A DNA stretch of 64,000 nucleotides, taken from Candidatus Rokubacteria bacterium 13_1_40CM_69_27 (GTDB lineage: Bacteria > Methylomirabilota > Methylomirabilia > Rokubacteriales > CSP1-6). The stretch is from the NCBI GenBank assembly GCA_001917535.1, contig MNEF01000029.1, forward strand, positions 13,815-77,814. Reading direction: 5' to 3'. How positions within the stretch are numbered: position 1 is the stretch's first letter; each line of letters opens with the position of its first letter. Positions 5,905-57,334 of this stretch are shown here, piece after piece. The position numbers and the translations under genes are program-made. The notes under the pieces were generated by a model, which searched no databases, had not been told where the DNA came from, and saw nothing but the letters and a program-made list of their open reading frames with translations.

Positions 5905-5951
5905 TCGCGACCTCCCGGGGCGGAGCGATGCGGTGGGGAGATGCTACCATA

Positions 5952-6066
5952 TTTGCTCGGAGGGGGACTCCGTCCCCCGTCCTCGTCGGAGGGGGCCTCG
6001 ACGGCCCCCTCCGAGACCTCCCCCTAGGATAGGTCGCGCCGGCGGAGCCGGCGCTCGAGCTCCGGT
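5952..6066. repeat. GC-rich palindromic repeat element (REP/MITE-like family, copy A)
   Basis: ctcggagggggactccgtcccccgtcc...tcggagggggcctcgacggccccctccga...cctcccc...gcgccggcggagccggcgctcga; the same modules recur at 8.15, 23.65, 38.47, 39.34, 45.72 and 56.28 kb. Confidence 0.6.
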
Positions 6067-8138: not shown

Positions 8139-8149
8139 GACGACATTTC

Positions 8150-8235
8150 GAGCGCGGGCGGAGCCCGCGCAACCGAGTCCTGGGGGGAGGTATCGGAAGG
8201 GGGGCAAAGCCCCCCTCCGAGGCTAAATCGACTGA
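8150..8235. repeat. REP/MITE-like element, copy B (inverted module order)
   Basis: gagcgcgggcggagcccgcgcaa...cctggggggaggt...tcggaaggggggcaaagcccccctccga between convergent Uma2 and ispH ends. Confidence 0.5.
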
Positions 8236-9215: not shown

Positions 9216-9222
9216 GTGGCTC

Positions 9223-18676: not shown

Positions 18677-19463
18677 CGCACCGACCTGGGCCGTCCTCCG
18701 TCCGTTCGAGCTGCTGGGCGAACGGGTGCTCGGCCTGCTCGAATCGCTGGGGCGTTTCGGCTCGTTCTTCGCGCGCGCCGTCCTCTCCATGGTCACGCCG
18801 CCGTTCAAGGTCCGCGCCTTCGTCGACCGCATCGACTACATCGGGTATCGCTCGCTGGTCATCATCGTTCTGACGGGCGCGTTCACCGGGATGGTGCTCG
18901 GCCTCCAGCTCTTCCTGACCCTCTCCCGGTTCGGCTCGGAGGCCTTCCTGGGCCCGGCGGTGGCGCTGGGGCTCATCCGGGAGTTGGGGCCGGTGCTGGC
19001 CGCGCTCATGGTGACCGGCCGGGCCGGCTCGGCGCTCACCGCCGAGATCGGGATCATGCGGATCACCGAGCAGATCGACGCGCTCACGGTGATGGCCCTG
19101 AGCCCGTTCCGCTACCTGGTGACGCCGTCGATCCTGGCCGGCGTCGTCACCTTCCCCCTCATGACCGCGCTCTTCGACGTGGTGGGGATCTTCGGCGGCT
19201 ACCTGGTGGGGGTGAAGCTTCTGGGGCTGTCGGAGGGCACCTACTTCGGCGAGATGCAGACGTTCGTCCACCTGGACGACATCTTGACCGGCTTCTGGAA
19301 GTCGCTGTCCTTCGGCGTGCTCGTCACCTGGGTCTGCACCTACAAGGGCTACTACGTCGGCCACGGCGCCGAGGGCGTGGCGCGGGCGACAACGCAGGCG
19401 GTGGTGCTGTCGTCCGTGCTCATTCTGCTCTGGGACTACTTCCTGGGCTCGGTACTGCGGTGA
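18669..19463 (+). CDS. mlaE: MlaE-family ABC transporter permease
   Basis: MADAPTWAVLRPFELLGERVLGLLESLGRFGSFFARAV...; start overlaps shc stop (ATGGCTGA). Confidence 0.85.
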   Translation: MADAPTWAVLRPFELLGERVLGLLESLGRFGSFFARAVLSMVTPPFKVRAFVDRIDYIGYRSLVIIVLTGAFTGMVLGLQLFLTLSRFGSEAFLGPAVALGLIRELGPVLAALMVTGRAGSALTAEIGIMRITEQIDALTVMALSPFRYLVTPSILAGVVTFPLMTALFDVVGIFGGYLVGVKLLGLSEGTYFGEMQTFVHLDDILTGFWKSLSFGVLVTWVCTYKGYYVGHGAEGVARATTQAVVLSSVLILLWDYFLGSVLR

Positions 19464-19654
19464 TCGTGGTGAGTCTATGATCGTGGCCGTGCGAGCCGCA
19501 GCCGAAGGTGAGGCGAGCCTGTGATCGTGGCCGTGCGAGCCGCAGGACGGCGGCGGGCCGCTGGGCGAGCCGCCGGGCGCCCAGGGGCTGGGGCCCCTGC
19601 GCCCGAGGCGAGCGAACCTCGAGAGCCCCGCCCGTCGGAGGCGAGCCTGTGATC
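19461..19654. repeat. Tandem direct repeats in mlaE-mlaF spacer, duplicating the mlaF initiation region
   Basis: tgatcgtggccgtgcgagccgcag at 19478-19501 and 19522-19545; gaggcgagcctgtgatc at 19510-19526 and 19638-19654 (the second carries the mlaF GTG start). Confidence 0.5.
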
Positions 19655-20404
19655 AAAGTCGAGGGGCTCACCAAGTCCTTCGACGGCCAGATGGTCCTCC
19701 GGGGCTTGGAGCTGGAAGTGCGCGACGGGTCGATCACGATCATCATCGGCCGGAGCGGCGGCGGCAAATCGGTCTTTCTCAAGCATCTGCTCGGCCTCCT
19801 GCGTCCGGACGCCGGCCGCGTCCTGGTAGGCGGCGTCGACCTGACCGGCGTCTCCCGGCGCGAGATCGACCGGGTTCGCGATCGGTACGGGGTCGTCTTC
19901 CAGGGCGGCGCGCTCTTCGACTCGCTGACGTGCGCGCAGAACGTCGCCTTCCCGCTGCGCGAGAAGACCCGCCTGGGCCGCGCGGAGATCACCAAGCGCG
20001 TGGAGGTGGGGCTGGCCCAGGTGGGACTGGAGGGCGTCGGCCCCAAGTACCCGGAGGAGATCTCGGGGGGCATGCGCAAGCGCGTGGCGATCGCCCGGGC
20101 GCTCATCACGGAGCCGGAGATCGTCTTCTTCGACGAGCCGACGACCGGGCTCGATCCCATCCTCGTGAACAGCATCCACGGGCTCATCCAGGATCTCCAC
20201 CGGCGCTTCGGCTTCACCGCGGTGATGGTGAGCCACGAGATCCCCGAGATCTTCGGGATCGCCGATACGGTGGCGATGCTGCACGACGGCCGGATCGTCG
20301 AGGTCGGACCGCCGGAGGCGATCCAGGGGTCGCGGAATCCCATCGTCCAGCAGTTCATCCGCGGCCAGCCCGACGAAGGCGGAGCCTTCAAGGAGAGCGG
20401 CTGA
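19649..20404 (+). CDS. mlaF: MlaF-family ABC transporter ATP-binding protein (GTG start)
   Basis: VIKVEGLTKSFDGQMVLRGLELEVRDGSITIIIGRSGGGKS...LSGGMRKRVAIARAL...FFDEPTTGLD. Confidence 0.85.
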   Translation: MIKVEGLTKSFDGQMVLRGLELEVRDGSITIIIGRSGGGKSVFLKHLLGLLRPDAGRVLVGGVDLTGVSRREIDRVRDRYGVVFQGGALFDSLTCAQNVAFPLREKTRLGRAEITKRVEVGLAQVGLEGVGPKYPEEISGGMRKRVAIARALITEPEIVFFDEPTTGLDPILVNSIHGLIQDLHRRFGFTAVMVSHEIPEIFGIADTVAMLHDGRIVEVGPPEAIQGSRNPIVQQFIRGQPDEGGAFKESG

Positions 20405-20844
20405 TGGACCGGTCCAAGGTGAATATCGCGGTGGGGATCTTCGTCGTCCTGGGTATCTTGGCATTGGGGTACCTTTCCATTAAACTCGGCAGGGTCAGTT
20501 TCTTCACGGGTGGCGGCTATCAAGTGACGGCCGATTTCCCCTCCGTGGGAGGCTTGCGACCCGGCGCCAGCGTCGAGATCGCCGGCGTCGAGGTCGGGCG
20601 GGTCGAGTCCATCGGGTTGGCGGACTATCAGGCGCACGTCGTCCTCCGGCTCAATTCGGACGTGAAGCTGCAGGATGATGCGATCGCGTCGATCAAGACC
20701 AAGGGCCTGATCGGCGAGAAATTCATTCGCATCAGTCCCGGCGCCTCCGAGAAGCTCATCGCGCCGGGGGGCCGTATCCGCGAGATCGAGGCTCCCGTCG
20801 ACCTCGAAGAACTGATCTCCAAGTACGTGTTCGGGAAGGTGTAG
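20404..20844 (+). CDS. mlaD: MlaD-family MCE-domain protein
   Basis: MDRSKVNIAVGIFVVLGILALGYLSIKLG...; single N-terminal TM + MCE domain; TGATG overlap with mlaF. Confidence 0.8.
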   Translation: MDRSKVNIAVGIFVVLGILALGYLSIKLGRVSFFTGGGYQVTADFPSVGGLRPGASVEIAGVEVGRVESIGLADYQAHVVLRLNSDVKLQDDAIASIKTKGLIGEKFIRISPGASEKLIAPGGRIREIEAPVDLEELISKYVFGKV

Positions 20845-20867
20845 TCGCAGGAACGGGAGGTCCGCCA

Positions 20868-21500
20868 ATGACGTCGTTACAGCGTGGCTTCGCGCTCGTG
20901 GTCGCCCTGGTCCTGGCCGCGGTGGTCGGCCCGGCGCCCGCGGCCGCCGCCGGTCCGACCGACCAGCTGCGCGCCCAGATCGACAAGGTCGTGAAGACGC
21001 TCGAGGACCCCGCGTTCAACAAGGAAGGCCAGGCCAAGGAACGCCGGGTGGCGGTGCGCAAGATCGCGGAGGAGATCTTCGACTTCGGCGAGACCGCCAA
21101 GCGCTCGCTGGCGCGCCACTGGCTGGCGCGCACGCCGGCCGAGCGCGAGGAATTCGTCGCGCTGTTCGCCGATCTCCTGGAGCGCTCGTACATCTCGAAG
21201 GTCGAGCTGTTCAACGGCGAGCGGATCACCTACACCGGGGAGACCATCGACGGCGACCAGGCCGTCGTGAAGACCAAGATCATCACCAAGCAGGGGACCG
21301 AGATCCCCGTCGACTACCGCCTGCTGCGAAGGGGCGAGCGCTGGCTCGTCTACGACGTGATCATCGAGGGCGTGAGCCTGGTCGCCAACTACCGGACGCA
21401 GTTCAACAAGATCATCCAGACCTCGTCCTATCAGGAGCTGGTCAAGAAAATGAAGACCAAACAGGAAGAGTTCCTCGAGCAGGAGAAGAAGCGGACATGA
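20868..21500 (+). CDS. hpnM: MlaC/Ttg2D-family periplasmic lipid-binding protein (HpnM-like)
   Basis: Signal peptide MTSLQRGFALVVALVLAAVVGPAPAAAAG; ...KVVKTLEDPAFNKEGQAKERRVAVRKIAEEIFDF... Ttg2D fold. Confidence 0.7.
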   Translation: MTSLQRGFALVVALVLAAVVGPAPAAAAGPTDQLRAQIDKVVKTLEDPAFNKEGQAKERRVAVRKIAEEIFDFGETAKRSLARHWLARTPAEREEFVALFADLLERSYISKVELFNGERITYTGETIDGDQAVVKTKIITKQGTEIPVDYRLLRRGERWLVYDVIIEGVSLVANYRTQFNKIIQTSSYQELVKKMKTKQEEFLEQEKKRT

Positions 21501-23164
21501 GCAAGGCCCACGCGCTCCGCGAGCTGCTGGCCGGTCCCGGTCTGGTCCCCGCAGTGGGGGCCCACGACGCGCTCAGCGCGAAGCTGATCGAGGCCGCCGG
21601 GTTTCCCGTCGTCTGGTCGTCCAGCTTCACCGTCTCCGCCGCCCAGCGGGCCATGCCCGACGTCAACCTCCTGACGATGACCGAGACGCTGGAGGCGGCG
21701 CGGCACATCGACAACGCCGTGAGGCTCCCCGTGATCGCCGACTGCGACAACGGCTACGGCAACGCCGTGAACGTCGTGCGGACGGTGGAGGAGTACGAGC
21801 GGGCGGGCATCGCCGGCATCTGCATCGAGGACAACCTCTTTCCGAAGAAATGCAGCCTCTATCCGGGGATGCGGCGCGAGCTGGCGTCGATCGAGGAGCA
21901 CGCCGGCAAGATCCGCGCGGCCAAGAAGGCCCAGCGGGATGCGGCGACGGTCATCATCGCCCGCACCGAGGCGCTGATCGCCGGCTGGGGGATGAAGGAG
22001 GCGCTGCGGCGCGCCCAGGCCTACGCCGAGGCGGGGGCCGACATGATCCTCATGCACTCGAAGGCGCCGACCGCGGCCGAGGTGCTGGAGTTCATGCGAC
22101 TCTGGGAGCGGCCCACGCCCATCGTGGTGGTGCCCACCCTCTACCCGTCGGTGACCTTCGAGGAGCTGGAGGCGGCGGGCGTCAAGCTCGTCATCTGGGC
22201 GAACCAGGTGCTGCGGGGCGCCGTGAAGGGCATGCAGGAGACGCTGGCGACGCTCGGGCGGGCCCGCCGCCTCGACGCCCTGGCCCCCCACATCGTCGCG
22301 CTGGAGGAGATCTACCGTTACGTCGGCGTGGACGAGTTCAAGCGGATCGAGACGGAGTTCCTGCCGCGGGGCGCCTCGGACGTGCGGGCCGTCATCATCG
22401 CGGCGGGCTCGGGCAAGTCGCTCCTGCCGCTGACCGAGGACCGGCCCCAGTGCATGCTCGACATCAAGGGGCGGACGGTGCTGGAGCGGCAGCTCGAGAC
22501 GCTGCGCGCCGGCGGTATCCAGGAGATCGCGGTGGTCCGCGGCTACCGCAAGGAGACCGTGGTGGCCCCGGGGGTGCGCTTCTACGACAACGACGCCTTC
22601 GACGAGAGCGGCGAGCTCGCCTCGCTCTTCGCGGCCGAGCCCGAGCTGCACGGCCGCGTCCTCTTCCTCTACTCGGACATCCTGTTCGAGCGCGCGGTGC
22701 TGGACAAGGTGCTCCGCGCCGAAGGGGACGTCGTCATCGCCGTGGACCGCGCCTGGGTGGACCAGCGGGACCGCCTGCTGCCGCTGGCCAAGCCCGTGGA
22801 TCTGGTGGTCACCTCCGACCCGCCCCGGCCCGGCCGCCGCTCGCTCGGCGAGGACTGGCGTGACGAGCTGGTGCTGATCGGCCAGCGCATCGCCCCGGAG
22901 GCGGCCACCGGCGAGTTCATCGGGCTGGCGGCCCTTTCGCCGCGGGGCGTGGAGCTCGCGCGCGAGAGCCACGCCCACGCTGTGGCCGCGGGCGCCGCAC
23001 CCTTTCACGAGGCGGCCAGCGTCCGGTACGCCGCCTTCACGGACCTGCTGCAGACGCTGGTGGCGGCCGGCCACCCCGTCACCTGCGTGAGCACGTGGAA
23101 GGGCTGGCTCGAGATCGACACGTTCGAAGACTACCAGCGCGCCTGGGCCGAGATCAGGTCGTAG
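21497..23164 (+). CDS. Phosphoenolpyruvate mutase fused to C-terminal nucleotidyltransferase domain
   Basis: N-term ~290 aa: ...LLTMTETLEAARHIDNAVRLPVIADCDNGYGN...GICIEDNLFPKKCS (PEP mutase/ICL family with the EDK(x)5NS-type motif); C-term ~250 aa: AVIIAAGSGKSLLPL...KGRTVLERQLETL (NTP_transferase fold). Confidence 0.85.
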   Translation: MSKAHALRELLAGPGLVPAVGAHDALSAKLIEAAGFPVVWSSSFTVSAAQRAMPDVNLLTMTETLEAARHIDNAVRLPVIADCDNGYGNAVNVVRTVEEYERAGIAGICIEDNLFPKKCSLYPGMRRELASIEEHAGKIRAAKKAQRDAATVIIARTEALIAGWGMKEALRRAQAYAEAGADMILMHSKAPTAAEVLEFMRLWERPTPIVVVPTLYPSVTFEELEAAGVKLVIWANQVLRGAVKGMQETLATLGRARRLDALAPHIVALEEIYRYVGVDEFKRIETEFLPRGASDVRAVIIAAGSGKSLLPLTEDRPQCMLDIKGRTVLERQLETLRAGGIQEIAVVRGYRKETVVAPGVRFYDNDAFDESGELASLFAAEPELHGRVLFLYSDILFERAVLDKVLRAEGDVVIAVDRAWVDQRDRLLPLAKPVDLVVTSDPPRPGRRSLGEDWRDELVLIGQRIAPEAATGEFIGLAALSPRGVELARESHAHAVAAGAAPFHEAASVRYAAFTDLLQTLVAAGHPVTCVSTWKGWLEIDTFEDYQRAWAEIRS

Positions 23165-24324
23165 TGAGCGGACGCGACTTCGCCGCCCTGCTGGAGCGCC
23201 GGGGGTTCGACTTCTTCGCGGGCGTACCCTGCTCGCTGATCGAAGACCTGATCGCGAACCTCGAGAGCCATCCGCGCCTACCCTACATCGACGCCGTCCG
23301 GGAAGACGTGGCGGTGGGCCTGGCCGGGGGCGCCTGGCTGGCCGGCCGGCGCCCCGCGGTCCTCATGCAGAACTCAGGGCTCGGCACGAGCCTGAACGCG
23401 CTCGCCTCCTTCTCCTTGATGTACGGCCTGCCGGCGCTGCTGCTCGTCACCTGGCGCGGCTTCGGCGGCAAGGACGCGCCCGAGCACATCCTCATGGGCG
23501 AGATCTCCCCGGGCCTGCTGGACCTGCTGGGCATCCCCTACCACGTGCTGGCCGGCGACTCGCTCGAGGCGGGCGTCGCCTGGGCGCGGGAGGAGATGGA
23601 CGCCCGCATGAGCCCGGTGGCGCTGCTCATCCCGCCCGGCATATTTTACTCGGAGGGGGCCTCGACGGCCCCCTCCGAAGCCTCCCCCAGGATTGCGCCG
23701 GCAAAGCCGGCGCTCGAACCGCGGCCGCGCCACCGCGCGGAAGGCGCACCGTTGGTGGCGAGGATTTCCCGGATGCAGGCGATCACGGCGGCGGTCAAGC
23801 AGCTGGGTGACGAGCCGGCCATCCACGCCAACGGCTACCCGTCGCGCGAGTCCTGCGCGGTCGCCGACCGCCCGCAGAACTTCTACATGATCGGCTCCAT
23901 GGGCCTGGCTTCGGCCATCGGCCTGGGCGTGGCGCTCGGCCGACCCCAACGGCGCACGATCATCTTCGACGGCGACGGGAACCTCCTGATGAACCTCGGC
24001 GTGATCACCAACGTCGCCGCGCTGGCTCCGCGCAACTTCATCCACTGCGTCTTCGACAACGAGGCCTACGGCTCGACCGGCAACCAGCGGTCGGCGTCGG
24101 CGCACGTCCGGCTCGATCGGGTGGCCGCGGCGGCCGGCTACCGGACGGTGGCGGCGGTGACCGAGGCCGACGAGGTCGCCGCGGCGCTCCGGACGATGCT
24201 CGCCTCGGACGGTCCCCACTTCCTCCTCGCGAAGGTGACGCGCGAGCAGGCGAAGGTCCCGCGGATCCCCCACACCCCCCCGGCGATCCGCGACCGCTTT
24301 CGCGCCAGCATGCTGGGACCGTGA
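23164..24324 (+). CDS. Phosphonopyruvate decarboxylase (ThDP-dependent), carrying an in-frame repeat insertion
   Basis: VSGRDFAALLERRGFDFFAGVPCSLIEDLIANL... (pyrimidine-binding half) and ...GSMGLASAIGLGVALG...IIFDGDGNLLMNLG (ThDP-binding GDG motif); TAGTG overlap with PEP mutase stop. Confidence 0.8.
   Translation: MSGRDFAALLERRGFDFFAGVPCSLIEDLIANLESHPRLPYIDAVREDVAVGLAGGAWLAGRRPAVLMQNSGLGTSLNALASFSLMYGLPALLLVTWRGFGGKDAPEHILMGEISPGLLDLLGIPYHVLAGDSLEAGVAWAREEMDARMSPVALLIPPGIFYSEGASTAPSEASPRIAPAKPALEPRPRHRAEGAPLVARISRMQAITAAVKQLGDEPAIHANGYPSRESCAVADRPQNFYMIGSMGLASAIGLGVALGRPQRRTIIFDGDGNLLMNLGVITNVAALAPRNFIHCVFDNEAYGSTGNQRSASAHVRLDRVAAAAGYRTVAAVTEADEVAAALRTMLASDGPHFLLAKVTREQAKVPRIPHTPPAIRDRFRASMLGP
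23649..23745. repeat. REP/MITE-like element copy C, inserted in frame inside the phosphonopyruvate decarboxylase CDS
   Basis: tcggagggggcctcgacggccccctccgaagcctcccccaggattgcgccggcaaagccggcgctcgaa matches the intergenic copies; encodes the interdomain stretch EGASTAPSEASPRIAPAKPALEPRPRH. Confidence 0.55.
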
Positions 24325-25061
24325 AGGCCATCATCCTCGCCGCCGGCGTGGCCCGCCGCCTCGCGCCGCTCACCGACCGGACGCACAAGTGCCTGCTGCC
24401 CGTGGGCGACCGGCCGCTGCTCACCCGGATGCTGGCCGCCCTGGAGGCCGTCGGCGTCGCCGAAGCGCTGCTCGTCGTCGGTCACTGCGCGGACCAGGTC
24501 CGCGCGGTGGCGGGCGCGCGCTTCGGCCGGATGAGGGTTCGCTACATCGACAACCCGGAGTACACCAGGGGCTCGGTGCTGTCGCTCTACGCCGCGCGCG
24601 AGCACCTCGCCGAGCCCGCCCTGGTGATGGACGCCGACGTCCTCTTTTCCCGCGAGCTCCTGCGTCGCCTGCTGGCGGCGCCGCCCCCCAGCGCCTTCCT
24701 CCTCGATCGCGGGTTCCAGGATACGGGCGAGGAGGTGAAGTACTACACGCGGGGCGATCGGGTGATCGCGCTCGGCAAGAAGGTCGTGCCCGAGTCCTGG
24801 GAGCTCGCGGGGGAGGGTGTCGGCTTCTTCAAGTGTGGCGCCGAAGCCGGCCCCGAGCTGGTCCGCCTGCTCGAGCGCGTCATCGCCGCGGGCAACGGCC
24901 TCAACGAGTACGAAGACGCCCTGCACCTCCTGGTCACGCGGCGTCACGTCGGGTGGGTCGACATCACCGGCCTGCCCTGGACCGAGATCGACTTCGCCGA
25001 GGACCTGCGCCGCGCGCGGGACGAGGTGCTGCCGCACGTCGTCCGGCTCGACGGCGCGTGA
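24321..25061 (+). CDS. Nucleotidyltransferase, LicC/cytidylyltransferase-like (candidate phosphonate cytidylyltransferase)
   Basis: VKAIILAAGVARRLAPLTDRTHKCLLPVGDRPLLTRMLAAL...: GxGxRL-like motif; GTGA overlap with ppd stop. Confidence 0.7.
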   Translation: MKAIILAAGVARRLAPLTDRTHKCLLPVGDRPLLTRMLAALEAVGVAEALLVVGHCADQVRAVAGARFGRMRVRYIDNPEYTRGSVLSLYAAREHLAEPALVMDADVLFSRELLRRLLAAPPPSAFLLDRGFQDTGEEVKYYTRGDRVIALGKKVVPESWELAGEGVGFFKCGAEAGPELVRLLERVIAAGNGLNEYEDALHLLVTRRHVGWVDITGLPWTEIDFAEDLRRARDEVLPHVVRLDGA

Positions 25062-26224
25062 TCACCGAGGCCGCGCTCTATCTCGCGAGCCCCGAGGACG
25101 CGAGCAGGGCGCGTTCAGCGGTGGCCGGCCGGCCGGTCGCCTTCCGGATGCTGATGGCGGCGATCCGCGCGGGGTGCCGGCGGGTGTACGTTCCGGACAT
25201 CTTCCGGGGCAGCGACGTCGAGCGCGCCATCGCGGCGGCCGCCTCCGCGCGGGCCGCCACCGTCTGGCTCGATCACGACGCGAAACCGCCGGAGGGGCCG
25301 ATCCTGCTCCTACCCGCCGCCGCCCTCGTCCCGCCCTCCGCGCTGGCCGCGCTGCTGGCCGCGCCTCCCCTCGCGCTCCTGGCCGCCTCCCGCGACAGCG
25401 ACGCGCCCGTGGTGGCCGCCGGCGCGGCCCTGGCCGCGGCGCTCTGGACGTCGATCGCGGCGGGTCAGCCGCTGGGAGATGCGTTGGAGCGCGCCCTCAA
25501 GGGCACCGAGGTCACGGTGATTCCGGGCGCCGGATGGTACGTGCGGTCGGTGTCGCCCGCGGCCGGGAAGGAGGCGGAGGTGCAGATCTACGCCGGCCTG
25601 GCCAGCGCCATCGACACCTGGCTCGACACGGTCTTTCATCGGCGCTTGTCACTTCCGCTGAGCCGGGCGGCGGTAGCGGGGGGCCTGACGCCCAACCAGG
25701 TCACCCTGGCGAGCCTGCTGGTGGGCCTGGGGGCGGTCTGGTGTTTCTGGCAGGCGACGCCGGCTCGCGCGATCGTCGGGCTGCTGCTCTACGCGGCGGC
25801 CGTCGTCCTCGACCACGCCGACGGTGAGGTCGCGCGGCTCACCCTCACCGAGTCACCGCTGGGCGCGTGGCTCGACGTGGCGGTGGACACCGCGATCCAC
25901 GCGCTGCTCGTCGTGGCTATGGGCATGACGGCCCAACAGGTCGGGGGCGACGGCGCCGCGCTGGCCGGGGTGGTGGCGGCGATCGGCGTCGTGGCGAGCG
26001 CGACGCTGACGCAGACCTCGCCGCCGGCCCGAGGCGGCGGGATCGGCCTGCTGCTCGACGCACTGAGCAACCGGGACGGGTTCTACGCGATGCTGGTCAT
26101 CTTCATCCTGGGGCTCGCGCTCCGGCCAGGCGCGCTCCCCGCGCTCATGATCTTCCTGGCGGTCGGCTGTCACGCCTTCTGGTTGAGCCGGTTGGCCTGG
26201 CGCCCGTTCCTGCGCACTAAGTGA
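25058..26224 (+). CDS. Bifunctional-type protein: degenerate nucleotidyltransferase-like N-domain + CDP-alcohol phosphotransferase membrane domain (IPCT/DIPPS- or BEPIS-like)
   Basis: C-terminal half with ...LDHADGEVARLTLTESPLGAWLDVAVDTAIH (CDP-OH_P_transf D-G-x2-A-R...D-x3-D motif) and 5-6 TM segments; N-terminal ~190 aa soluble; GTGA overlap. Confidence 0.65.
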   Translation: MITEAALYLASPEDASRARSAVAGRPVAFRMLMAAIRAGCRRVYVPDIFRGSDVERAIAAAASARAATVWLDHDAKPPEGPILLLPAAALVPPSALAALLAAPPLALLAASRDSDAPVVAAGAALAAALWTSIAAGQPLGDALERALKGTEVTVIPGAGWYVRSVSPAAGKEAEVQIYAGLASAIDTWLDTVFHRRLSLPLSRAAVAGGLTPNQVTLASLLVGLGAVWCFWQATPARAIVGLLLYAAAVVLDHADGEVARLTLTESPLGAWLDVAVDTAIHALLVVAMGMTAQQVGGDGAALAGVVAAIGVVASATLTQTSPPARGGGIGLLLDALSNRDGFYAMLVIFILGLALRPGALPALMIFLAVGCHAFWLSRLAWRPFLRTK

Positions 26225-26355
26225 ATGTGCGCGATGGTGGGCCCTCGTGATCGAGCTAACCGCCGCGCGGAGATGAGTTGCCTTCCTGGTGCTATAGTAA
26301 GGACCCGGCCGTGACGACCTCACGATCGGACGTGACGTCCTGCGATCGAGCACGA

Positions 26356-27051
26356 ATGTCGGCGAACAGCTGCGGACTTACTGGAGCTGTGCTGTTCGAT
26401 TTCGGCGGCACGCTGGATGCCGACGGTCTACCCTGGAAAGAGCGCGTGGCCCGGCTCTTTAGGCAGGAGGGCCTCGTCGTTACGGTTGAGCGGTTCGATC
26501 CCCTCTTCTACGCGGCGGACGACGCGCTCGTCGGTGCGGTGCCGCCCACCCTGCCGCTTCGGGAAACGGTGTTTCGGCTCGTAGCCGGTCTGGCCCGCAG
26601 CCTCGGGCTGCGTGACGACACCATGGTCGATCGCGTCACGACACGATTCGTCGAGCATGCGGTAGAGAACCTGCGGGGCAATCGGCCCCTGCTCTGGGAG
26701 CTCAGCCGCCGCTACCGTTTGGGCCTCGTCGCCAACTTCTACGGCAATCTCGCCGCGGTGTGTGCGGAGTGCGGAATCCGCGAGCTCTTCGGCGTCATCT
26801 TAGATTCGGCAGACGTGGGATGCGCGAAACCGGACCCCAAGATCTTTCGCATAGCGGCCGAGGCGCTGGGGCTAGCGCCCGCTCACGCCCTGTTCGTGGG
26901 CGACTCCCGGCCCCGCGACATGGCCGGCGCACGAGCGGCCGGCATGCCCCACGTCTGGTTGGTCGGCGAGACCTCTAGCGACGGGCAGCCCTGCTGTCCG
27001 GGCGACGCGGTGATCCGTTCGCTGAAGGACCTGGAAGAGCTGCTATTGTGA
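26356..27051 (+). CDS. HAD-superfamily hydrolase (phosphatase-like)
   Basis: GAVLFDFGGTLD (motif I DxG), ...LGLVANF..., ...FVGDSRPRDMAGARAAG (motif IV). Confidence 0.65.
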   Translation: MSANSCGLTGAVLFDFGGTLDADGLPWKERVARLFRQEGLVVTVERFDPLFYAADDALVGAVPPTLPLRETVFRLVAGLARSLGLRDDTMVDRVTTRFVEHAVENLRGNRPLLWELSRRYRLGLVANFYGNLAAVCAECGIRELFGVILDSADVGCAKPDPKIFRIAAEALGLAPAHALFVGDSRPRDMAGARAAGMPHVWLVGETSSDGQPCCPGDAVIRSLKDLEELLL

Positions 27052-27758
27052 CGCGTGAGCCGACGCTTCGAGGAGGCATCATCGCGGCGGGCAAGGGTCG
27101 CCGGTTGCGCCAGGGGGGCTGGACGATGCCCAAGCCTCTGGTTCCCATCGCCGGTGTGCCCTTGATCGAGTCGGTGATTCGGAACTTCAGCGCCGCGGGC
27201 ATCACCTCCCTCGTCATCATCGTGAACGAGCAAGGACGCGACTGCTTGGAGCACGTGCGCCGGCGCTTCCCCGACCTGGACCTGGACTTCATCGTGAAGA
27301 CTACCGCGTCGTCCCTCGAGAGTTTCGGCGAGGTGGCGACGCGTCTGGGTCGTGGCCGCGCATTGATTTCGACGGTCGACGCCTGGTGCCGGGAAGCCGA
27401 CTTCGTGCACTTCGTGGAGGCGGCGCGACAGCGCCCGGTTCAGGCGACGGTCCTCGCGGTGACGCCGTTGGTGTCGGATGAAGACCCGCTGTGGGTGAGG
27501 CTTGACGACGACGGCCGTGTCAGCGATCTCGGGGGCCGCTCGGGCGAGATGGTCACCGCTGGGATCTATCTGGTCTCCGAGCGTGTGCGGACGATGGTCC
27601 CGCCGTCCGAGCTGGCGCGGCTGCGGGACTTCTTGACCTGGCTCCACTCCCGGGGAGAGGTGCTCTGCGGCGAAGTCATCCAAACGGTCGTCGATGTCGA
27701 CGAGGCCGAAGACGTGGCCCTCGCCGAAGCGCTGGTGGGCGCCGGCAAGAACCCGTGA
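27048..27758 (+). CDS. Nucleotidyltransferase (sugar/alcohol-phosphate NTP-transferase fold)
   Basis: VTREPTLRGGIIAAGKGRRLRQGGWTMPKPLVPIAGVPLIESVIRNF...; GTG start overlaps HAD stop. Confidence 0.65.
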   Translation: MTREPTLRGGIIAAGKGRRLRQGGWTMPKPLVPIAGVPLIESVIRNFSAAGITSLVIIVNEQGRDCLEHVRRRFPDLDLDFIVKTTASSLESFGEVATRLGRGRALISTVDAWCREADFVHFVEAARQRPVQATVLAVTPLVSDEDPLWVRLDDDGRVSDLGGRSGEMVTAGIYLVSERVRTMVPPSELARLRDFLTWLHSRGEVLCGEVIQTVVDVDEAEDVALAEALVGAGKNP

Positions 27759-27777
27759 GTCCTTCGGGAGGTGTCGC

Positions 27778-28614
27778 GTGAGCCGAGCATGTTGGGGCAT
27801 TTTTCGAGAACGGGCGCATTCGCCCGGTCGGGAGAGCGACGACACCGAAATCCTCCGTCTGACGGGAAAGCACCTCGAGGCGAATGGGTACGAGGTGATC
27901 TTGAAGGCGCCGGAGGAGGTGAACGGCGCCACCGACGGCCGCCCGCGCTTTGCGTTCCTGATGTGTGAAGGTCTCGCCGTGCTGGGCCAACTCCGGGCCT
28001 GGGAGGCCGACGGGGTGCGGCAGGTGAACAGCCCCCTGGCGGTCCTGAACACGTATCGGGAGCGGATGATCGCGCAGCTCAAGGAGGCGAACGTTCCGTT
28101 CATCCAGAGCCGTATCGTTTCGACCGCCGAGCCCTACCGTGGCGCGGCTCCGCCCGTATGGGTCAAGCGAGCCGATGTTCACTACACCCAGGAGGGCGAT
28201 GTGGTCTTCGCGCCCAGCGAGGGTGTGCTCGGCGAGTCGCTCCGGGGGCTGGCCGAGCGCGGGATTCCCCGCGCGGTGATCCAGGCGCACGTCGAGGGCG
28301 ACCTCATCAAGTTCTACGGGATCGGCAGCGGAGGCGGAGCCGACGGCGGGCCACAGTGGTTTCGGTGGCTCTATCACAAGGACCAGACGGTGGCCGGCCA
28401 CCCGTTCGACCCGGTGCGATTGGCCCGGCTCGTGCGGAGAGCGGCCGGAGCCCTGAGCCTCGAAGTCTACGGGGGCGACGCAATCGCCACCGCAGCCGGT
28501 GACCTCGTGTTGCTCGACCTCAACGCCTGGCCCAGCTTCGCCCTGTATCGGGAGGAGGCGGCCGCCCGCATCGCCGCCTACCTCGCCCTTCGCTTCCGGG
28601 AAGAGGCGCTGTGA
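27778..28614 (+). CDS. ATP-grasp-fold protein (putative carboxylate-amine/alcohol ligase); start uncertain
   Basis: ...ILRLTGKHLEANGYEVILKAPEEVNG...WVKRADVHYTQEGDVVFAPSEG...VIQAHVEGDLIKFYGIGSGG...; RimK/GshB-like topology; first in-frame start after upstream stop is GTG 27778. Confidence 0.5.
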   Translation: MSRACWGIFRERAHSPGRESDDTEILRLTGKHLEANGYEVILKAPEEVNGATDGRPRFAFLMCEGLAVLGQLRAWEADGVRQVNSPLAVLNTYRERMIAQLKEANVPFIQSRIVSTAEPYRGAAPPVWVKRADVHYTQEGDVVFAPSEGVLGESLRGLAERGIPRAVIQAHVEGDLIKFYGIGSGGGADGGPQWFRWLYHKDQTVAGHPFDPVRLARLVRRAAGALSLEVYGGDAIATAAGDLVLLDLNAWPSFALYREEAAARIAAYLALRFREEAL

Positions 28615-29939
28615 CCGCGCGGCGTCCGGTCGGTCCCCGGTCTCAACGGATCGTCGCCCAGGAAGCGCGGCGGATCGCCCCCGGTTTGCAGTCGTACGCC
28701 CTTTACTCGGGTCTGGCCATGGCGCGGGGAAGCGGCTGCACGCTCGTCGACGAGGACGGGAACGAGTACATCGACTTCATCGCGGGGATCGGAGTGGGCA
28801 GCGTCGGCCACTGCCATCCGCACTACGTGGAGGCGCTCAAACGGCAGGTCGAGCGATTGACCTTCGGTAGCTTCACCACCGAGGGGCGGGCGCGCTTTCT
28901 CGAACTGCTGGCCACCGTCACCCCGCCGGGATTGACGCGTATCCAGTTGTTCTCGGGAGGAGCCGAGGCGGTGGAGGCGGCCTTGCGGCTGGCGAAGGCG
29001 GCGACTCGGAAACACGAGGTCATCGGATTCTGGGGCGGGTTCCACGGGAAAACCGGCGGCGTACTGGGGCTGCTGGGGAGCGAGTTCAAGCACCATCTCG
29101 GACCCTTCGTGCCCGGCCAGTACCTGTCGCCGTATGCGGACTGCTATCGCTGCCCGCTCCGGCTCCGCTACCCGGAGTGCGGCATCGCCTGCGCCGAGTA
29201 CCTGCGCGACGTCATCCGCTATCAGACCAGCGGCGAGATCGCGGCGGTCATCGTCGAGTCTATCCAGGGGACGGCCGGCAACGTCGTCCCTCCGGAGGGG
29301 TTCCTCCGGGCCATCCAGACGATCGCCCGCGACCACGGCGCCCTGCTGATCGTCGACGAGATGCTGACCGGCTTCGGTCGAACCGGGTCCATGTGGGGCT
29401 GCGATCACGACGGGGTCGTCCCCGACGTCATGACGGTGGGCAAAGGCATCGGCGGGGGCTTCCCCATGAGTGGCGTGGTCTCCACGGACGAGCTCACCAG
29501 CCGCAAGCCGTGGTCCAACCCGAGCGCGAGCTCCTCGAGTTACGGTGGCAACCCGCTGGCCGCCGCCGCCGGGCTGGCGTCGCTCGAGATCATCCTGAAG
29601 GAGGACCTCGTCAAGAAGGCCGAGCGGGTGGGCACCGTGATGCTGGCGCGGCTGGAAGCACTGAAGGAGAAGTATCGGTGCGTCGGCGACGTGCGGGGCC
29701 GAGGCCTCATGCTGGGCATCGAGCTCGTGAAGGATCGCATGACGAGGGAGCCGCTGGCCAAGGAGGTGACGCAGGCTCTCTATCAGGAGTGTCTGCGGCG
29801 CGGCTTGGTGGCGATGTGCTATTCACCCTCCATTCGGATCAACCCGCCGCTCATCATCGGCGAGGACCGCGCCCTGGAAGGTCTCGCCATCCTCGACGAG
29901 GCCCTGGCGGCGGTCCTCCGGCAACACGGGCTCACGTAG
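28611..29939 (+). CDS. Class III (omega-type) PLP aminotransferase
   Basis: ...DFIAGIGVGSVGHCHPHYVEAL...LLIVDEMLTGFGRTGSMWGCDHDGVVPDVMTVGKGIGGGFP...: fold-type I class III signature with the Lys in TVGKG; GTGA overlap. Confidence 0.8.
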   Translation: MTARRPVGPRSQRIVAQEARRIAPGLQSYALYSGLAMARGSGCTLVDEDGNEYIDFIAGIGVGSVGHCHPHYVEALKRQVERLTFGSFTTEGRARFLELLATVTPPGLTRIQLFSGGAEAVEAALRLAKAATRKHEVIGFWGGFHGKTGGVLGLLGSEFKHHLGPFVPGQYLSPYADCYRCPLRLRYPECGIACAEYLRDVIRYQTSGEIAAVIVESIQGTAGNVVPPEGFLRAIQTIARDHGALLIVDEMLTGFGRTGSMWGCDHDGVVPDVMTVGKGIGGGFPMSGVVSTDELTSRKPWSNPSASSSSYGGNPLAAAAGLASLEIILKEDLVKKAERVGTVMLARLEALKEKYRCVGDVRGRGLMLGIELVKDRMTREPLAKEVTQALYQECLRRGLVAMCYSPSIRINPPLIIGEDRALEGLAILDEALAAVLRQHGLT

Positions 29940-29940
29940 G

Positions 29941-38481: not shown

Positions 38482-38560
38482 AAGACTCGGAGGGGGGCTT
38501 CGCCCCCCTTCCGAACCCTCCCCCCAGGACGGATGGCGCGGGCCAAGCCCGCGCTCGGGC
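38472..38560. repeat. REP/MITE-like element copy D
   Basis: ctcggaggggggcttcgccccccttccgaaccctccccccaggacggatggcgcgggccaagcccgcgctcggg between convergent hpnN and 38586..39317. Confidence 0.55.
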
Positions 38561-39317: not shown

Positions 39318-39334
39318 GCTTACCTCCTGTTCGG

Positions 39335-39445
39335 GCGCGGGCTTCGCCCGCGCAACCACCGGGGTGTTTCAGAGGGGGCCGCGCGGCCCCCTCTGACTAT
39401 GGATCTCGGAGGGGGCCATCGAGGCCCCCTCCGACCCGTACCCGC
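39335..39445. repeat. REP/MITE-like element copy E (two hairpin modules)
   Basis: gagcgcgggcttcgcccgcgc...agagggggccgcgcggccccctct...tcggagggggccatcgaggccccctccga. Confidence 0.55.
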
Positions 39446-44046: not shown

Positions 44047-45726
44047 ATGGCAGGTTCGGCAACGACGCGCGCGCGCTGGGCGCGGGTCGAGGGCGCGGCG
44101 GAACTGTTCACGCCGGCCTTCCTCGACTACCTCCTGAGCCTCCACGATCGGTTCGCGCCGCGCATCCGCGAGCTCCTGGCCCGACGGGCAGAAGCGCTCG
44201 ACCAGGCCCTTCGGCAGGGCCGTCCGCCCACCCATCCGCCGGCCAGCGTCGCCACCACGGGCCACTGGAAAGTTCCGCCCGTGCCGGACGACCTCAGGAA
44301 GCCCGGTATCGAGATCTCGGGGCCCTGCTCCATCACGCCCATGTTCATCAACGCGCTCAATCCCGGCCCGGAGGGCGAGCGCGCCGAGGGCGACCTGGAC
44401 GACGACGAGGATTCGGGCGGCCATCGCCTCATCGACACGGTCCGGGCGGCCCACAATCGGAGTGCCGCCATTCATCGCGAGCTGCACTACTTCGACCGGG
44501 AACGGAACAAGGAGTACAAGATCGTCGAGGGCGAGCTGCCCTTCTTCATGCACCGCGAGCGCGGCCTCCACCTCGAGGAGCCGGACGTGACGATCGACGG
44601 CGCGCCCGTGAACGCCGCCATCCTCGGCACCGCGCTGACGCTCTTCTATGCCGGCCGCGCGCAGGCCGAGCGGGGCCAGGGCATCTACTTCTACCTGCCG
44701 AAGCTCGAGTTCGCGCCCGAGGCGCACCTCTATCGCGATCTCTTCGACGCCAGCCGCGAGCGGCTGCCGTGGCTCGAGAGCGCGACCATCCGGGCGGTCG
44801 TCCTCGTCGAAGCGCTGCCGTGCGTGTACGAGATGGAGCAGATGCTGTACGAGCTGGGGCCCTACGCGGCGGGGCTCAACGCCGCCCGCTGGGATCTCAA
44901 GGCCAGTATCTTCGAGTACGTCATGACGAATCCCAAGTCGGTGTGGCCCGATCGCTTCGGCGTGGACATCAAGACCACGCCGTTCCTCGCCGACATCTTC
45001 CGACGCCTCGTTGCCATCTGCCTCAAGCGCGGCGCCGCGCCCATCGGCGGCATGGCCACCGCCCTGCCCAGTTCCGATCCGGAGGTCAACCGCGTCGCCG
45101 CCGAGGCCATCCGCGCCGACAAGGAGTGGGAGGCCCGCCAGGGCTTCATCCGCGCCTGGGTCGCGCACATCTTCCACATGAAGACCGCCGCCGACCCCTT
45201 CAAGAAGCTCATCGCGTCAGGCTGGAAGCCGACACCGGAGATGGCGAACCCCGACAACTACCCCGTGCGGATCGACGTCCCCCAGGGGCCGATCACCGTC
45301 GAGGGGACGCGCCGCAACTGCCGGATGCTCATCGAGTACGTGGAGGGCTGGCTCAACGGCCGCGGCGCCAAGAGCATCGACAGCCTCGCCGGCAGGCCCG
45401 GCGTCCACCCCGCGTTGATGGAAGACCTGGCCACCGGCCGCATGTCCGTGGCCCAGATCGCCCAGCGCATTCGTCACCGGGTGCCCCCGACCGAGGGCCC
45501 GGCCGACGTCCACGACGTCGCGCTGGTCAAGCGACTGCTCCAGGAGGAGGTCGAGGACATCCTGGCGCGCGCGAAGCCGGATGCGCCGGGCCAGGCGCGC
45601 TACCGCAAGGCGATGAAGATCGCCATGCGCTGGATCAAGAACTACGCGGAGCTGGACTTCCGCAGCCTCGGCTCTTACACGCGCGCCGACCTGGAGAGGA
45701 TCGCCGCCGGGCCGGAGGCGCTTTAG
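44047..45726 (+). CDS. aceB: Malate synthase A
   Basis: ...LPFFMHRERGLHLEEPDVTIDGAPV...IYFYLPKLEFAPEAHLYRDLF...IRAVVLVEALPCVYEMEQMLYELG...: full-length ~559 aa with catalytic Arg/Asp region. Confidence 0.9.
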   Translation: MAGSATTRARWARVEGAAELFTPAFLDYLLSLHDRFAPRIRELLARRAEALDQALRQGRPPTHPPASVATTGHWKVPPVPDDLRKPGIEISGPCSITPMFINALNPGPEGERAEGDLDDDEDSGGHRLIDTVRAAHNRSAAIHRELHYFDRERNKEYKIVEGELPFFMHRERGLHLEEPDVTIDGAPVNAAILGTALTLFYAGRAQAERGQGIYFYLPKLEFAPEAHLYRDLFDASRERLPWLESATIRAVVLVEALPCVYEMEQMLYELGPYAAGLNAARWDLKASIFEYVMTNPKSVWPDRFGVDIKTTPFLADIFRRLVAICLKRGAAPIGGMATALPSSDPEVNRVAAEAIRADKEWEARQGFIRAWVAHIFHMKTAADPFKKLIASGWKPTPEMANPDNYPVRIDVPQGPITVEGTRRNCRMLIEYVEGWLNGRGAKSIDSLAGRPGVHPALMEDLATGRMSVAQIAQRIRHRVPPTEGPADVHDVALVKRLLQEEVEDILARAKPDAPGQARYRKAMKIAMRWIKNYAELDFRSLGSYTRADLERIAAGPEAL

Positions 45727-45945
45727 CCTCGGAGGGGGGCTCCGCCCCCCTTCCGAAACCTCCCCCCAGGAATCGATTGCGCCGGCGAAGCCGGCGCTCG
45801 AATGCCGCGAGATCTTCCCGGTCCGCTACGGGCGCGTCGGAGTAAACACTGGTCGAGCGCGGGCTTCGCCCGCGCAATCTTTGCTAGGGGGAGGCTTCGG
45901 AGGGGGCCGTCGAGGCCCCTCCGATGACCTAGGGGAAGCGGTAGC
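45724..45945. repeat. Composite pair of inverted REP/MITE-like elements (copy F)
   Basis: ctcggaggggggctccgccccccttccgaaacctccccccaggaatcgattgcgccggcgaagccggcgctcgaa ... gagcgcgggcttcgcccgcgcaatctttgctagggggaggcttcggagggggccgtcgaggcccctccga; between convergent aceB and 45929..46690. Confidence 0.6.
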
Positions 45946-56278: not shown

Positions 56279-56405
56279 ACGCGAATTTCGAGCGCCGGCT
56301 CGAGCGCGGGCCATCGACCTGTGGGGAGGTTCGGAGGGGGCCGGGCGGCCCCCTCCGACTATGGATTTCGGAAGAGGGGCGAAGCCTCCCTCCGAGGCTA
56401 GACGG
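56279..56405. repeat. REP/MITE-like element copy G
   Basis: gagcgccggctcgagcgcgggcc...ggggaggttcggagggggccgggcggccccctccgactatggatttcggaagaggggcgaagcctccctccga. Confidence 0.55.
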
Positions 56406-57300: not shown

Positions 57301-57334
57301 GGGCGAGCTCCCGTGCAGTGCGAGGGTGGTACCA

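Follow-up and report, generated by a model that had tools for sequence, protein, structure and literature searches.

The ppd gene and its operon

The gene analyzed here lies on the forward strand of a 64,000-nucleotide stretch of DNA (hereafter the window), where it follows a gene for PEP mutase and encodes phosphonopyruvate decarboxylase (Ppd), whose two thiamine-diphosphate halves are joined by a tether.

21497..23164, + strand: PEP mutase with a fused nucleotidyltransferase domain, operon partner upstream of ppd
23164..24324, + strand: ppd, phosphonopyruvate decarboxylase, 386 residues (ORF analysis, homologs, profile search)
23164..23643, + strand: PYR (alpha-like) thiamine-diphosphate half, residues 1-160 (9iz3_A alignment; confidently folded by AlphaFold2)
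23632..23763, + strand: interdomain tether, residues 157-200, hypervariable and modelled as disordered (ortholog alignment; AlphaFold2)
23755..24321, + strand: PP (beta-like) thiamine-diphosphate half, residues 198-386 (9iz3_B alignment, profile match)

The window Ppd consists of PYR and PP thiamine-diphosphate domains without a middle domain, the PEP mutase gene is found immediately upstream, and this gene context is syntenic in the orthologs. The 1451 homologs of Ppd are labelled phosphonopyruvate decarboxylase by their sources and contain the domains PF02776 and PF02775. TIGR03297, the Ppd equivalog, is by far the best-scoring family and aligns end to end (residues 14-381 on profile positions 1-358), with a score of 301.5 bits that is below the cutoff of 312.5; this shortfall is small, and the tether is plausibly its cause. 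The two chains of a split Ppd align to either half: the alpha subunit (9iz3_A, residues 25-178 out of 181) to residues 9-157 and the beta subunit (9iz3_B, residues 12-175) to residues 212-380; the sulfopyruvate decarboxylase beta profile spans residues 203-382.

The GTG start of ppd overlaps the TAG of the PEP mutase gene, and its stop codon overlaps the start of the next gene downstream. With starts and stops overlapping, the operon has no intergenic space elsewhere. That ppd might comprise two genes, or that translation might restart internally at Met205, was considered and rejected: the frame contains no in-frame stop, the conserved residues L197 and R203 lie upstream of Met205, and 78 of 78 Rokubacteria-type ortholog loci are fused. 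An identical 1161-nt ppd gene was found in two other JGI assemblies; the window gene is therefore not an assembly chimera.

A palindromic element translated within ppd

The tether contains a dispersed palindromic element of about 70 nt that consists, in this order, of a G-rich hairpin, a C-rich box, a GC hairpin and TCGAA.

23650..23718, + strand: core of the element, 69 nt, encoding the 23 residues 163-185 (SEGASTAPSEASPRIAPAKPALE)
23650..23678, + strand: hairpin 1, 12-bp stem TCGGAGGGGGCC / GGCCCCCTCCGA with loop TCGAC
23681..23688, + strand: CCTCCCCC box between the hairpins, conserved in copy alignments
23695..23718, + strand: hairpin 2 (GCGCCGGC AAA GCCGGCGC) and conserved TCGAA tail, with C-G/G-C swaps at two stem positions
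23719..23751, + strand: non-repeated tail of the tether, variable among orthologs (ortholog comparison; L081/L082)

Both imperfect palindromes are able to form stem-loops, hairpin 2 with a stem of 8 bp, and the core at 23650-23718 has a predicted RNA fold of -47.5 kcal/mol (z = -5.3). Hairpin 1 (TCGGAGGGGGCCTCGACGGCCCCCTCCGA, 23650-23678) has an exact copy at 5986-6014 and a copy with one mismatch at 39406-39434, and a match like this was given by 0 of 100 shuffled sequences. Hairpin 2 with its TCGAA (23693-23718) recurs with one mismatch at 45777-45802, and the 33 nt at 23656-23688 are 100% complementary to 45887-45919. Over 19 copies, 97% of the stem cells are paired and four pairs have changed on both sides (22 cells), a level of pairing and compensatory change that was reached in 0 of 500 shuffles. 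As judged from these aligned copies, both palindromes have been kept via compensatory changes.

The ORF at 23164-24324 is open straight through the element. The initial annotation had described a member of a dispersed palindromic family that preserves the reading frame, and both points are confirmed, the former by the exact and near-exact hairpin matches and by the HMM search described below. The interval that it assigned to the repeat, 23649-23745, held in part: the core at 23650-23718 is repeated, and nothing in the other copies corresponds to 23719-23745. The heptamer CATATTT, found before the copies at 5945 and 23641, was rejected as part of the element, as in ppd it encodes a conserved I/L-F and the same residues are present in repeat-free orthologs.

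The repeat family in the window and in metagenomes

A search of the window with an HMM built from the window copies returned eight full copies, the one in ppd included, with E values from 1e-10 to 7e-18. The seven others are intergenic.

5955..6058, + strand: two hairpin-1 modules
8147..8226, - strand: begins immediately at the stop codon (TAG, 8223-8225) of gene 8223-9455, which is co-oriented
38486..38558, + strand: 4 nt past the stop of gene 35725-38481
39327..39435, - strand: two hairpin-1 modules
45724..45802, + strand: opens with the three bases of the TAG that terminates gene 44047-45726
45853..45924, - strand: 4 nt past the stop of gene 45929-46690 (-)
56285..56400, - strand: two hairpin-1 modules, begins at the TAG stop of gene 56398-57375 (-)

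The copies at 5.95, 38.47, 45.72 and 56.28 kb had been recognized before and are found again here, and those at 8147-8226 (-), 39327-39435 (-) and 45853-45924 (-) are added to them.

A metagenome search with a pattern that included the CCTCCCCC box yielded at least 124 copies on 120 contigs. Among the metagenome matches listed, 41 of 108 copies begin 0-7 nt past a stop codon in the same orientation, with a typical spacing of 4-5 nt, and none of the 76 evaluable copies is internal to a gene, so that the ppd copy is the exception. The sole intragenic candidate among the at least 124 listed (L129) was rejected, because the gene concerned is an antisense shadow ORF and the copy lies between clpX and rsmI. 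In L184, an ORF continues through a copy, which it reads in the same frames. When 80 species-representative loci were searched by nhmmer with an 8-copy model, only intergenic copies were detected (in L027, L036, L042, L049 and L058) and no copy was found in any ppd tether, as the orthologs that bear the repeat come from metagenome contigs.

The copies start with TCGGAGG, and the preceding 8 nt are A/T-rich, with no fixed motif in these 8 nt and no GTAG-type 5' tetranucleotide. Each unit comprises two unrelated hairpins, of the GGAGGGGG type and the GCGCCGGC type, in fixed order, and is not made of inverted copies of one REP. Inspected by eye, the ends of the element (TCGGAG... and ...CTCGAA) are weakly inverted, and neither the ppd site nor the flanks of the sampled copies (119 upstream, 117 downstream) show a visible target-site duplication. 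An Rfam scan of an intergenic copy pair and the ppd copy gave chance-level matches only, far below the gathering scores, and the literature searched yielded no relevant report of a palindromic repeat in Rokubacteria. This bipartite repeat family of Rokubacteria is apparently undescribed and very abundant.

The interdomain tether

The tether has no sequence conservation in the ortholog alignment, and its length ranges from 93 to 300 nt, always in frame, among 78 fused ortholog loci and the window (126 nt), which shows that the tether is free of sequence and length constraint. Between fixed anchors, the tether of the window has 42 residues, of which more than half are encoded by the repeat, and those of most repeat-free Rokubacteria orthologs have 31-35. 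The window tether exceeds the usual ortholog tether by about 8-10 residues, and the window Ppd spans about 10 residues more than the canonical fused profile TIGR03297. Consequently, there is no clean gain of 30 residues; the initial annotation had overestimated the addition at about 30, as the repeat codes for 23.

In the AlphaFold2 model, pLDDT is below 50 at residues 165-190 and no secondary structure is predicted at residues 157-200, and both domains are confidently folded. The closest solved structure, 9iz3, has the end of its alpha chain near query residue 160 and the start of its beta chain near 201, so that the chain ends flank the site. The permissive location between the PYR and PP halves that had been suggested agrees with these results, and the element is predicted to fall in an unstructured region compatible with the Ppd fold. 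In the outgroup (Nitrospira) loci L069-L080, Ppd is split into two genes at the position of the tether.

The element in Ppd orthologs

At the DNA level, a complete element at the same site and in the same orientation and hairpin-1 frame is found in eight orthologs (L081-L086, L211 and L212), and the nine DNA-verified forward copies, the window included, start within about two codons of each other. By peptide signature, the element is also present in P0004, P0007, P0029, P0033 and P0046, and degenerate remnants are found in the sister lineages P0017, P0023, P0028, P0038 and P0041. The tether of P0004 apparently contains several repeat modules. Between the window and L083-L086, and among L083-L086, identity at the four-fold sites of the flanking domains is 0.50-0.64 and therefore saturated, and identity of the element in the same pairs is higher, at 0.58-0.86; hairpin 1 of the window and that of L084 are identical at 29 of 29 positions. 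The shared site together with the saturated four-fold sites indicates that occupation of this site predates several species-level splits.

The initial annotation had taken the insertion as a sign of recent mobility, which the eight same-site orthologs contradict. A recent private insertion of a mobile repeat, or an assembly chimera at a repeat, would agree with the identity of hairpin 1 to intergenic window copies and with the fast change of the region between L081 and L082 (see below), but it is scarcely credible given that these orthologs come from independent samples with saturated neutral sites and that the identical gene is present in two further assemblies. Orthologs with the same linker sequence, named previously as a sign against an insertion, do exist, yet only since they share the insertion.

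The element could also have created the fused gene, if it had settled after the stop codon of an alpha gene, the stop had then been lost and alpha and beta had been joined through the translated repeat. The outgroup loci L069-L080 and PDB 9iz3 are split exactly at this position, the element starts two codons past the equivalent of the alpha C-terminus, which fits the 0-7 nt spacing to stop codons, the tether of the repeat-bearing orthologs is almost wholly element and tail, and the ORF of L184 is a case of read-through in the same frames. However, 78 of 78 Rokubacteria-type loci are fused, most without a trace of the element, and the repeat-bearing orthologs, which have at least 67% identity to the query, are a subset of these fused loci, so that the fusion most parsimoniously came first. 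The canonical TIGR03297 likewise represents a fused protein, of almost equal length, and sequence inspection indicates that, had a stop at the usual spacing simply been lost, an extra indel would be needed to give the observed hairpin-1 frame. Fusion through the repeat is therefore very improbable.

Hairpin 2 is translated in the orthologs as either IAPAKPALE-type or GAGEARART-type peptides, and its reading in two frames means that the nucleotide structure is kept and not the peptide. The domains of L081 and L082 share 98% amino-acid identity and 97% identity at four-fold sites, whereas their elements are 70% identical; the two loci differ in the element and the 33 nt behind it, and beyond sharp borders their flanks are identical. 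Judged by this sequence comparison, remodelling of the element continues between genomes that are nearly identical. The domains of L082 are 93% identical to those of the window, yet L082 possesses a different hairpin-1 type and hairpin-2 variant. The element variants are incongruent with the ppd tree, a rough neighbour-joining tree without support values, in which repeat-bearing and repeat-free orthologs are interleaved.

Given that the variants do not follow the tree and that the elements are more alike than neutral sites, repeated re-insertion or conversion could explain the shared site just as well as a single old insertion. If the tether, or else a short motif where it begins, were a preferred target, recurrent insertion or replacement would make the shared site a matter of targeting, not of descent. 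Such recurrence would accord with the incongruence between element subtype and ppd relatedness, with the difference between L081 and L082 and with elements far more similar than four-fold sites, and also with a tether that holds a reverse-oriented relative (L001/L002) and at least three unrelated families and with the strong position bias of the family elsewhere, 4-5 nt past stop codons. It is unlikely nonetheless: the nine DNA-verified copies are alike in orientation, hairpin-1 frame and start (within about two codons), remnants in sister lineages are expected if an inherited copy decayed, no conserved target motif is found upstream of the copies, and the swap between L081 and L082 takes in about 33 nt of non-repeat tail and thus resembles allelic recombination, not transposition.

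Other repeats and RNA structure in the tether

The tethers of L013, L017 and L024 match intergenic DNA at L017:5440-5620, in L014 and in L194, those of L001 and L002 match L123 in reverse orientation and carry a reverse-oriented relative of the window family, that of L043 matches L140, and that of L021 matches L139. In other lineages, the same tether has therefore received at least four further dispersed palindromic repeat insertions (three unrelated families and the reverse-oriented relative). A fold z of -3.0 or lower was obtained for 13 of 79 tethers, compared with 2 of the 76 windows taken as controls from within the PP domain, and most ortholog tethers have no structure (z near 0).

The hairpins may instead function in operon RNA or translation and be under selection for it, either as a pause that aids PYR folding or as a processing or stability site that sets the product ratio. 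Such a function would suit a stable structure (-47.5 kcal/mol) positioned exactly at the domain boundary, in an operon without intergenic space elsewhere, and two stems kept by compensatory changes despite saturated neutral sites. It is improbable, however, since most orthologs have no structure in the tether and the element has decayed in several lineages; moreover, intergenic copies are conserved likewise, so that maintenance is not specific to ppd.

Proposed history and significance

Based on these results, we propose, with a probability of roughly 0.7, that a REP-type element of Rokubacteria (Methylomirabilota) is a long-term resident of ppd, where it lies in the disordered tether and is translated in frame as 23 low-complexity residues. 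A single old insertion would have entered the already fused ppd. Afterwards, modules would have been duplicated or lost, the region would have undergone segmental replacement or gene conversion, and the element would have decayed in some lineages. Disorder prediction and linker variability suggest that the encoded peptide may be a tolerated passenger. The element would be maintained by genome-wide upkeep of the repeat family, not by selection on Ppd, and this upkeep may be selection on the hairpins or copying/conversion by a putative repeat-specific enzyme. The tether may behave as intergenic DNA toward such repeats, and this would account for the arrival of several unrelated palindromic families there in other lineages.

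A further, quite unlikely possibility is that the tether is a "cryptic intergenic region", in that what the repeats recognize, or are selectively retained at, is the 3' border of translated units and not non-coding DNA as such. It would explain why an extragenic, stop-hugging family sits exactly at the alpha/beta junction, why at least four further repeat insertions occurred at this junction and why the hairpins stay intact inside an ORF. In its strongest form, the repeat itself would have made the fusion by read-through, or would act as a pause or processing signal at the domain boundary.

In-frame palindromic repeats in genes are already known from Rickettsia, and ppd provides an example in an uncultured soil phylum. 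The Rokubacteria repeat family shows a striking bias to the first few nucleotides past stop codons, and different repeat families have repeatedly moved into one enzyme tether with the ORF always open. The tether is thus a natural experiment on which coding positions act as "extragenic" and on how the linkers of fused enzymes are built and renewed, and hairpins maintained within coding sequence in two frames separate nucleotide-level from peptide-level constraint. Translated repeats also depress profile scores, the window Ppd being just below the equivalog cutoff, and they are spots where metagenome assemblies tend to break.

Comparison with known systems

Split and fused decarboxylases (PDB 9iz3; TIGR03845/TIGR03846 versus TIGR03297) share the same two halves, and their junction corresponds to the tether that holds the element; unlike the chains of 9iz3, the Rokubacteria halves are joined by a 42-residue tether. 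Similar to intragenic MITE/ERIC fusions (Delihas 2007; Wolk 2010; PMC10969869), ppd contains a small non-autonomous repeat that is read through in the host ORF. Compared with such insertions as outlined in PMC10969869, the ppd element has no clear terminal inverted repeats or target-site duplication, and its insertion is old and conserved, not strain-specific.

The Rokubacteria family resembles REPs and REPINs in being composed of short imperfect palindromes with many copies that are extragenic and sometimes clustered, and in its vertical inheritance, persistence at orthologous sites and compensatory stem change (PMC3116915, PMC3337134, bioRxiv 10.1101/2021.07.10.451892). It differs from them in having no GTAG-type 5' motif, in copies located 4-5 nt from stop codons and in a ppd copy that is translated, and, unlike a REPIN, its unit consists of two different hairpins and a C-rich box, not of two inverted copies of one REP.

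The closest analogue of the ppd element is the Rickettsia palindromic elements (RPEs), repeats of about 150 bp described as having entered many different genes (PMC10969869). The ppd element, 69 nt long and GC-rich, is grossly different from them in length and composition. While RPEs are reported from many genes, the Rokubacteria family is extragenic save for one coding site, which is a gene boundary in other phyla, and, as a difference from the RPE insertions so described, the Ppd junction has also taken up other repeat families. By the same description, both are dispersed palindromic repeats found in frame within a metabolic gene whose ORF is kept, and both place a peptide (in Ppd, as predicted) without disturbing the fold in an insertion common to orthologous sites between species (PMC10969869).

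Repeat Element and Its Copies in the Window

The copy of the palindromic repeat in ppd, the phosphonopyruvate decarboxylase gene, is located at 23650-23718 and reads, in the window sequence, TCGGAGGGGGCC-TCGAC-GGCCCCCTCCGA (hairpin 1), AGCCTCCCCCAGGATT (box), GCGCCGGC-AAA-GCCGGCGC (hairpin 2) and TCGAA. The core shared with other copies spans 69 nt; the initial annotation had extended the repeat over 23649-23745, the 3' third of which is not repeated. Its kinship with intergenic repeats, also proposed there, is borne out. Hairpin 1 has an exact second copy at 5986-6014 and a one-mismatch copy at 39406-39434 (0 matches in 100 shuffles), 45777-45802 corresponds to hairpin 2 plus TCGAA with one mismatch, and 45887-45919 is the perfect complement of a 33-nt stretch of the ppd element. 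Copies read singly, their alignment and an HMM search of the window gave eight loci in its 64 kb, three of which carry two hairpin-1 modules. The RNA fold of the core is predicted at -47.5 kcal/mol (z = -5.3), and Rfam holds no family matching the element.

Element copies found by the HMM search of the window
5955-6058, + strand, element copy
8147-8226, - strand, element copy
23650-23718, + strand, element copy in ppd
38486-38558, + strand, element copy
39327-39435, - strand, element copy
45724-45802, + strand, element copy
45853-45924, - strand, element copy
56285-56400, - strand, element copy

The window also contains a 214-nt inverted repeat (32420-32633 and 48140-48353, 76% complementary, 15.5 kb apart), which is probably the mark of paralogous genes on opposite strands.

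The ppd Gene and the Interdomain Tether

The ppd open reading frame (ORF; 23164-24324) starts with a GTG overlapping the TAG of the upstream gene, a PEP mutase-nucleotidyltransferase fusion, and encodes 386 aa with PF02776 and PF02775. Many of its 1451 homologs are named phosphonopyruvate decarboxylase in their source, and its top NCBIfam match, TIGR03297, aligns end to end with 301.5 bits vs. a cutoff of 312.5. In agreement with the earlier claim, the element is translated in frame, into residues 163-185 (SEGASTAPSEASPRIAPAKPALE). An identical 1161-nt gene is found in two other JGI assemblies, which excludes an assembly artefact.

Starts and stops overlap between genes of the surrounding operon, with zero intergenic space. 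In the gene tables of the window and of the ortholog loci L081, L082 and L088, the gene cluster around ppd (window ~15000-30000) is conserved: squalene-hopene cyclase, a radical-SAM gene, MlaEFDC, the PEP mutase-nucleotidyltransferase fusion, ppd, a second nucleotidyltransferase, CDP-alcohol phosphatidyltransferase, inositol-1-phosphate synthase and an MMPL transporter, which suggests a phosphonate-bearing membrane lipid as the product.

The closest solved structure, PDB 9iz3, is a split enzyme, whose alpha chain, aligned to residues 9-157, ends at about residue 160 and whose beta chain, aligned from residue 212 on, starts at about residue 201. In the AlphaFold2 model (pTM 0.87) both halves are folded, residues 157-200 are without secondary structure and residues 165-190 have pLDDT <50. 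The chain ends and the predicted disorder place the repeat-encoded residues in the tether joining the two halves (23632-23763), in agreement with the permissive position first suggested.

Orthologs are of the same size as Ppd (375-400 aa), and their tethers are unconserved in sequence. Among 78 fused Rokubacteria-type loci, the tether measures 93-300 nt between fixed anchors, in frame every time, with 93-111 nt being the commonest lengths vs. 126 nt in the window, and Ppd exceeds the 360-position fused-Ppd profile by only ~10 residues. Thus, the element supplies 23 residues, yet the tether is just ~8-10 residues above the usual length, and the earlier figure of ~30 added residues is not upheld.

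In outgroup loci of Nitrospira and Chlamydiae (L069-L080; ~45% identity), ppd is two genes, and the stop/restart position coincides exactly with the Rokubacteria tether. The alpha gene ends in '...KGVVKGLHP' before its stop, followed by a 10-100 nt spacer and a beta gene starting 'MRPEEG'. A split ppd could have become fused through the repeat, but this is less likely than insertion into a fused gene, because orthologs that are fused yet lack the repeat are much more common.

Age and Remodelling of the Element in ppd

Among contigs of the closest orthologs, L081-L086, L211 and L212 contain the full element, its position, orientation and hairpin-1 frame (TCG GAG GGG) all matching those in the window. 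Its peptide signatures also occur in the ortholog proteins P0004, P0007, P0029, P0033 and P0046, and degraded versions in P0023, P0028, P0038 and P0041. Between the window and L083-L086, four-fold-site identity in the flanking domains is 0.50-0.58, i.e., saturated, a divergence at which 69 nt free of constraint could no longer be recognised; identity of the element is 0.67-0.86, and hairpin 1 is identical to that of L084 at 29/29 positions. The shared site, orientation and frame in orthologs with saturated four-fold sites show that the element in ppd is not recent, contrary to the initial annotation.

Across 19 copies (seven in ppd and 12 intergenic), 97% of stem cells are paired, with changes on both sides at four stem positions (22 cells). 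None of 500 shuffles matched the observed pairing, and sliding the partners lowered it to ~50%. Hairpin 1 of L212 contains one more compensatory change (A-T to C-G). Hairpin 2 is read in two frames among orthologs, giving IAPAKPALE/IAAAKPPLG-type or GAGEARART-type peptides. Given the kept pairing and the two frames, it is the nucleotide structure that is constrained rather than the peptide. Intergenic copies are equally persistent, with an orthologous copy at ~8750 in L036, L042, L049, L058, L060 and L070. This copy, at one intergenic site in several species, is a three-hairpin variant in which an additional stem separates hairpin 1 from the CCTCCCCC box; the variant is also found at L033:4812-4869 and in the L212 ppd tether.

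Between L081 and L082, identity is 98% for the protein and 97% for four-fold sites, and the flanks of their tethers are identical up to sharp borders. The L081 tether contains 2.5 hairpin-1 modules, belonging to two types, whereas the L082 tether contains a single module of yet another type, and its hairpin-2 variant and 33-nt tail also differ from those of L081. These differences suggest that the tether evolves by segmental replacement and module gain and loss, much faster than the rest of ppd. The element subtypes are incongruent with a rough neighbour-joining tree. The shared site could also have arisen by repeated targeting or conversion, but one old insertion followed by remodelling is favoured, given the uniform orientation, frame and start position and the decayed remnants in sister lineages.

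Other lineages carry different palindromic inserts in the tether, in frame, each with copies in non-ppd intergenic DNA.

Tether inserts of other ppd loci
L013/L017/L024: ~150 nt, -150 to -160 kcal/mol; also at L017:5440-5620, L014:4240-4400 and L194:4239-4356
L001/L002: relative of the window ppd's family in reverse orientation; matches L123:1615-1717
L043: matches a tandem repeat at L140:9922-10093
L021: matches L139:6749-6844

The ~150-nt element belongs to another Rokubacteria lineage and is unrelated to the window ppd's family. Long palindromes are also found in the tethers of L003, L025 and L040 (z -4.9 to -7.3), and fold z is ≤ -3.0 in 13 of 79 tethers vs. 2 of 76 control windows taken from within the PP domain. 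That the hairpins act at the RNA level is possible but less likely, as most tethers are unstructured. The data are best explained by a REP-type element that has long been resident, in frame, in a tether free of structural demands: the repeat-encoded peptide would be a tolerated passenger, and the element would be kept intact and remodelled by nucleotide-level processes acting on the whole repeat family.

Placement of the Repeat Outside ppd

A pattern scan of metagenome contigs found at least 124 copies in at least 120 contigs. Among the matches listed, 76 copies had sufficient flank to be judged, and in none was there a coding-like half on both sides; the sole intragenic candidate, in L129, proved to be a shadow ORF lying between clpX and rsmI. 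Also among the matches listed, 41 of 108 copies start 0-7 nt after the stop of a co-oriented ORF (mode 4-5 nt), as do five of the seven intergenic window copies (stop codons at 8223-8225, 38479-38481, 45724-45726, 45929-45931 and 56398-56400). This proximity, counted in metagenome loci L091-L210, could reflect targeting or selection, or the element may bring its own stop. Adjacent stops are rich in TAG (17 TAG, 4 TGA and 3 TAA vs. a background of 185, 233 and 20, respectively). In a few cases the 3' end of an ORF extends into a copy, as in L184, where a 435-codon minus-strand ORF (~10531) with strong coding bias lacks a stop ahead of the copy and traverses all of it in ppd's frames, ending in a repeat-encoded C-terminal tail (…SEGGCAPLPNLPPPSAAAKPPLERGNSNA, then a stop).

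Comparison with Known Systems

The recurrent colonisation of one fused-gene junction and the tight stop-codon association of the repeat family are of moderate interest, and no description of the Rokubacteria repeat was found in the literature searched. Like REP/REPIN elements (PMC3116915, PMC3337134, 10.1101/2021.07.10.451892), the family is palindromic, persistent and present in many copies, but it is without their GTAG-type motif and inverted-doublet architecture. Rickettsia palindromic elements are in-frame insertions in many genes that are common to several species (PMC10969869). Although it has no sequence relationship to them and its family is extragenic outside the ppd site, the ppd element works in the same manner, as an in-frame insert common to species.
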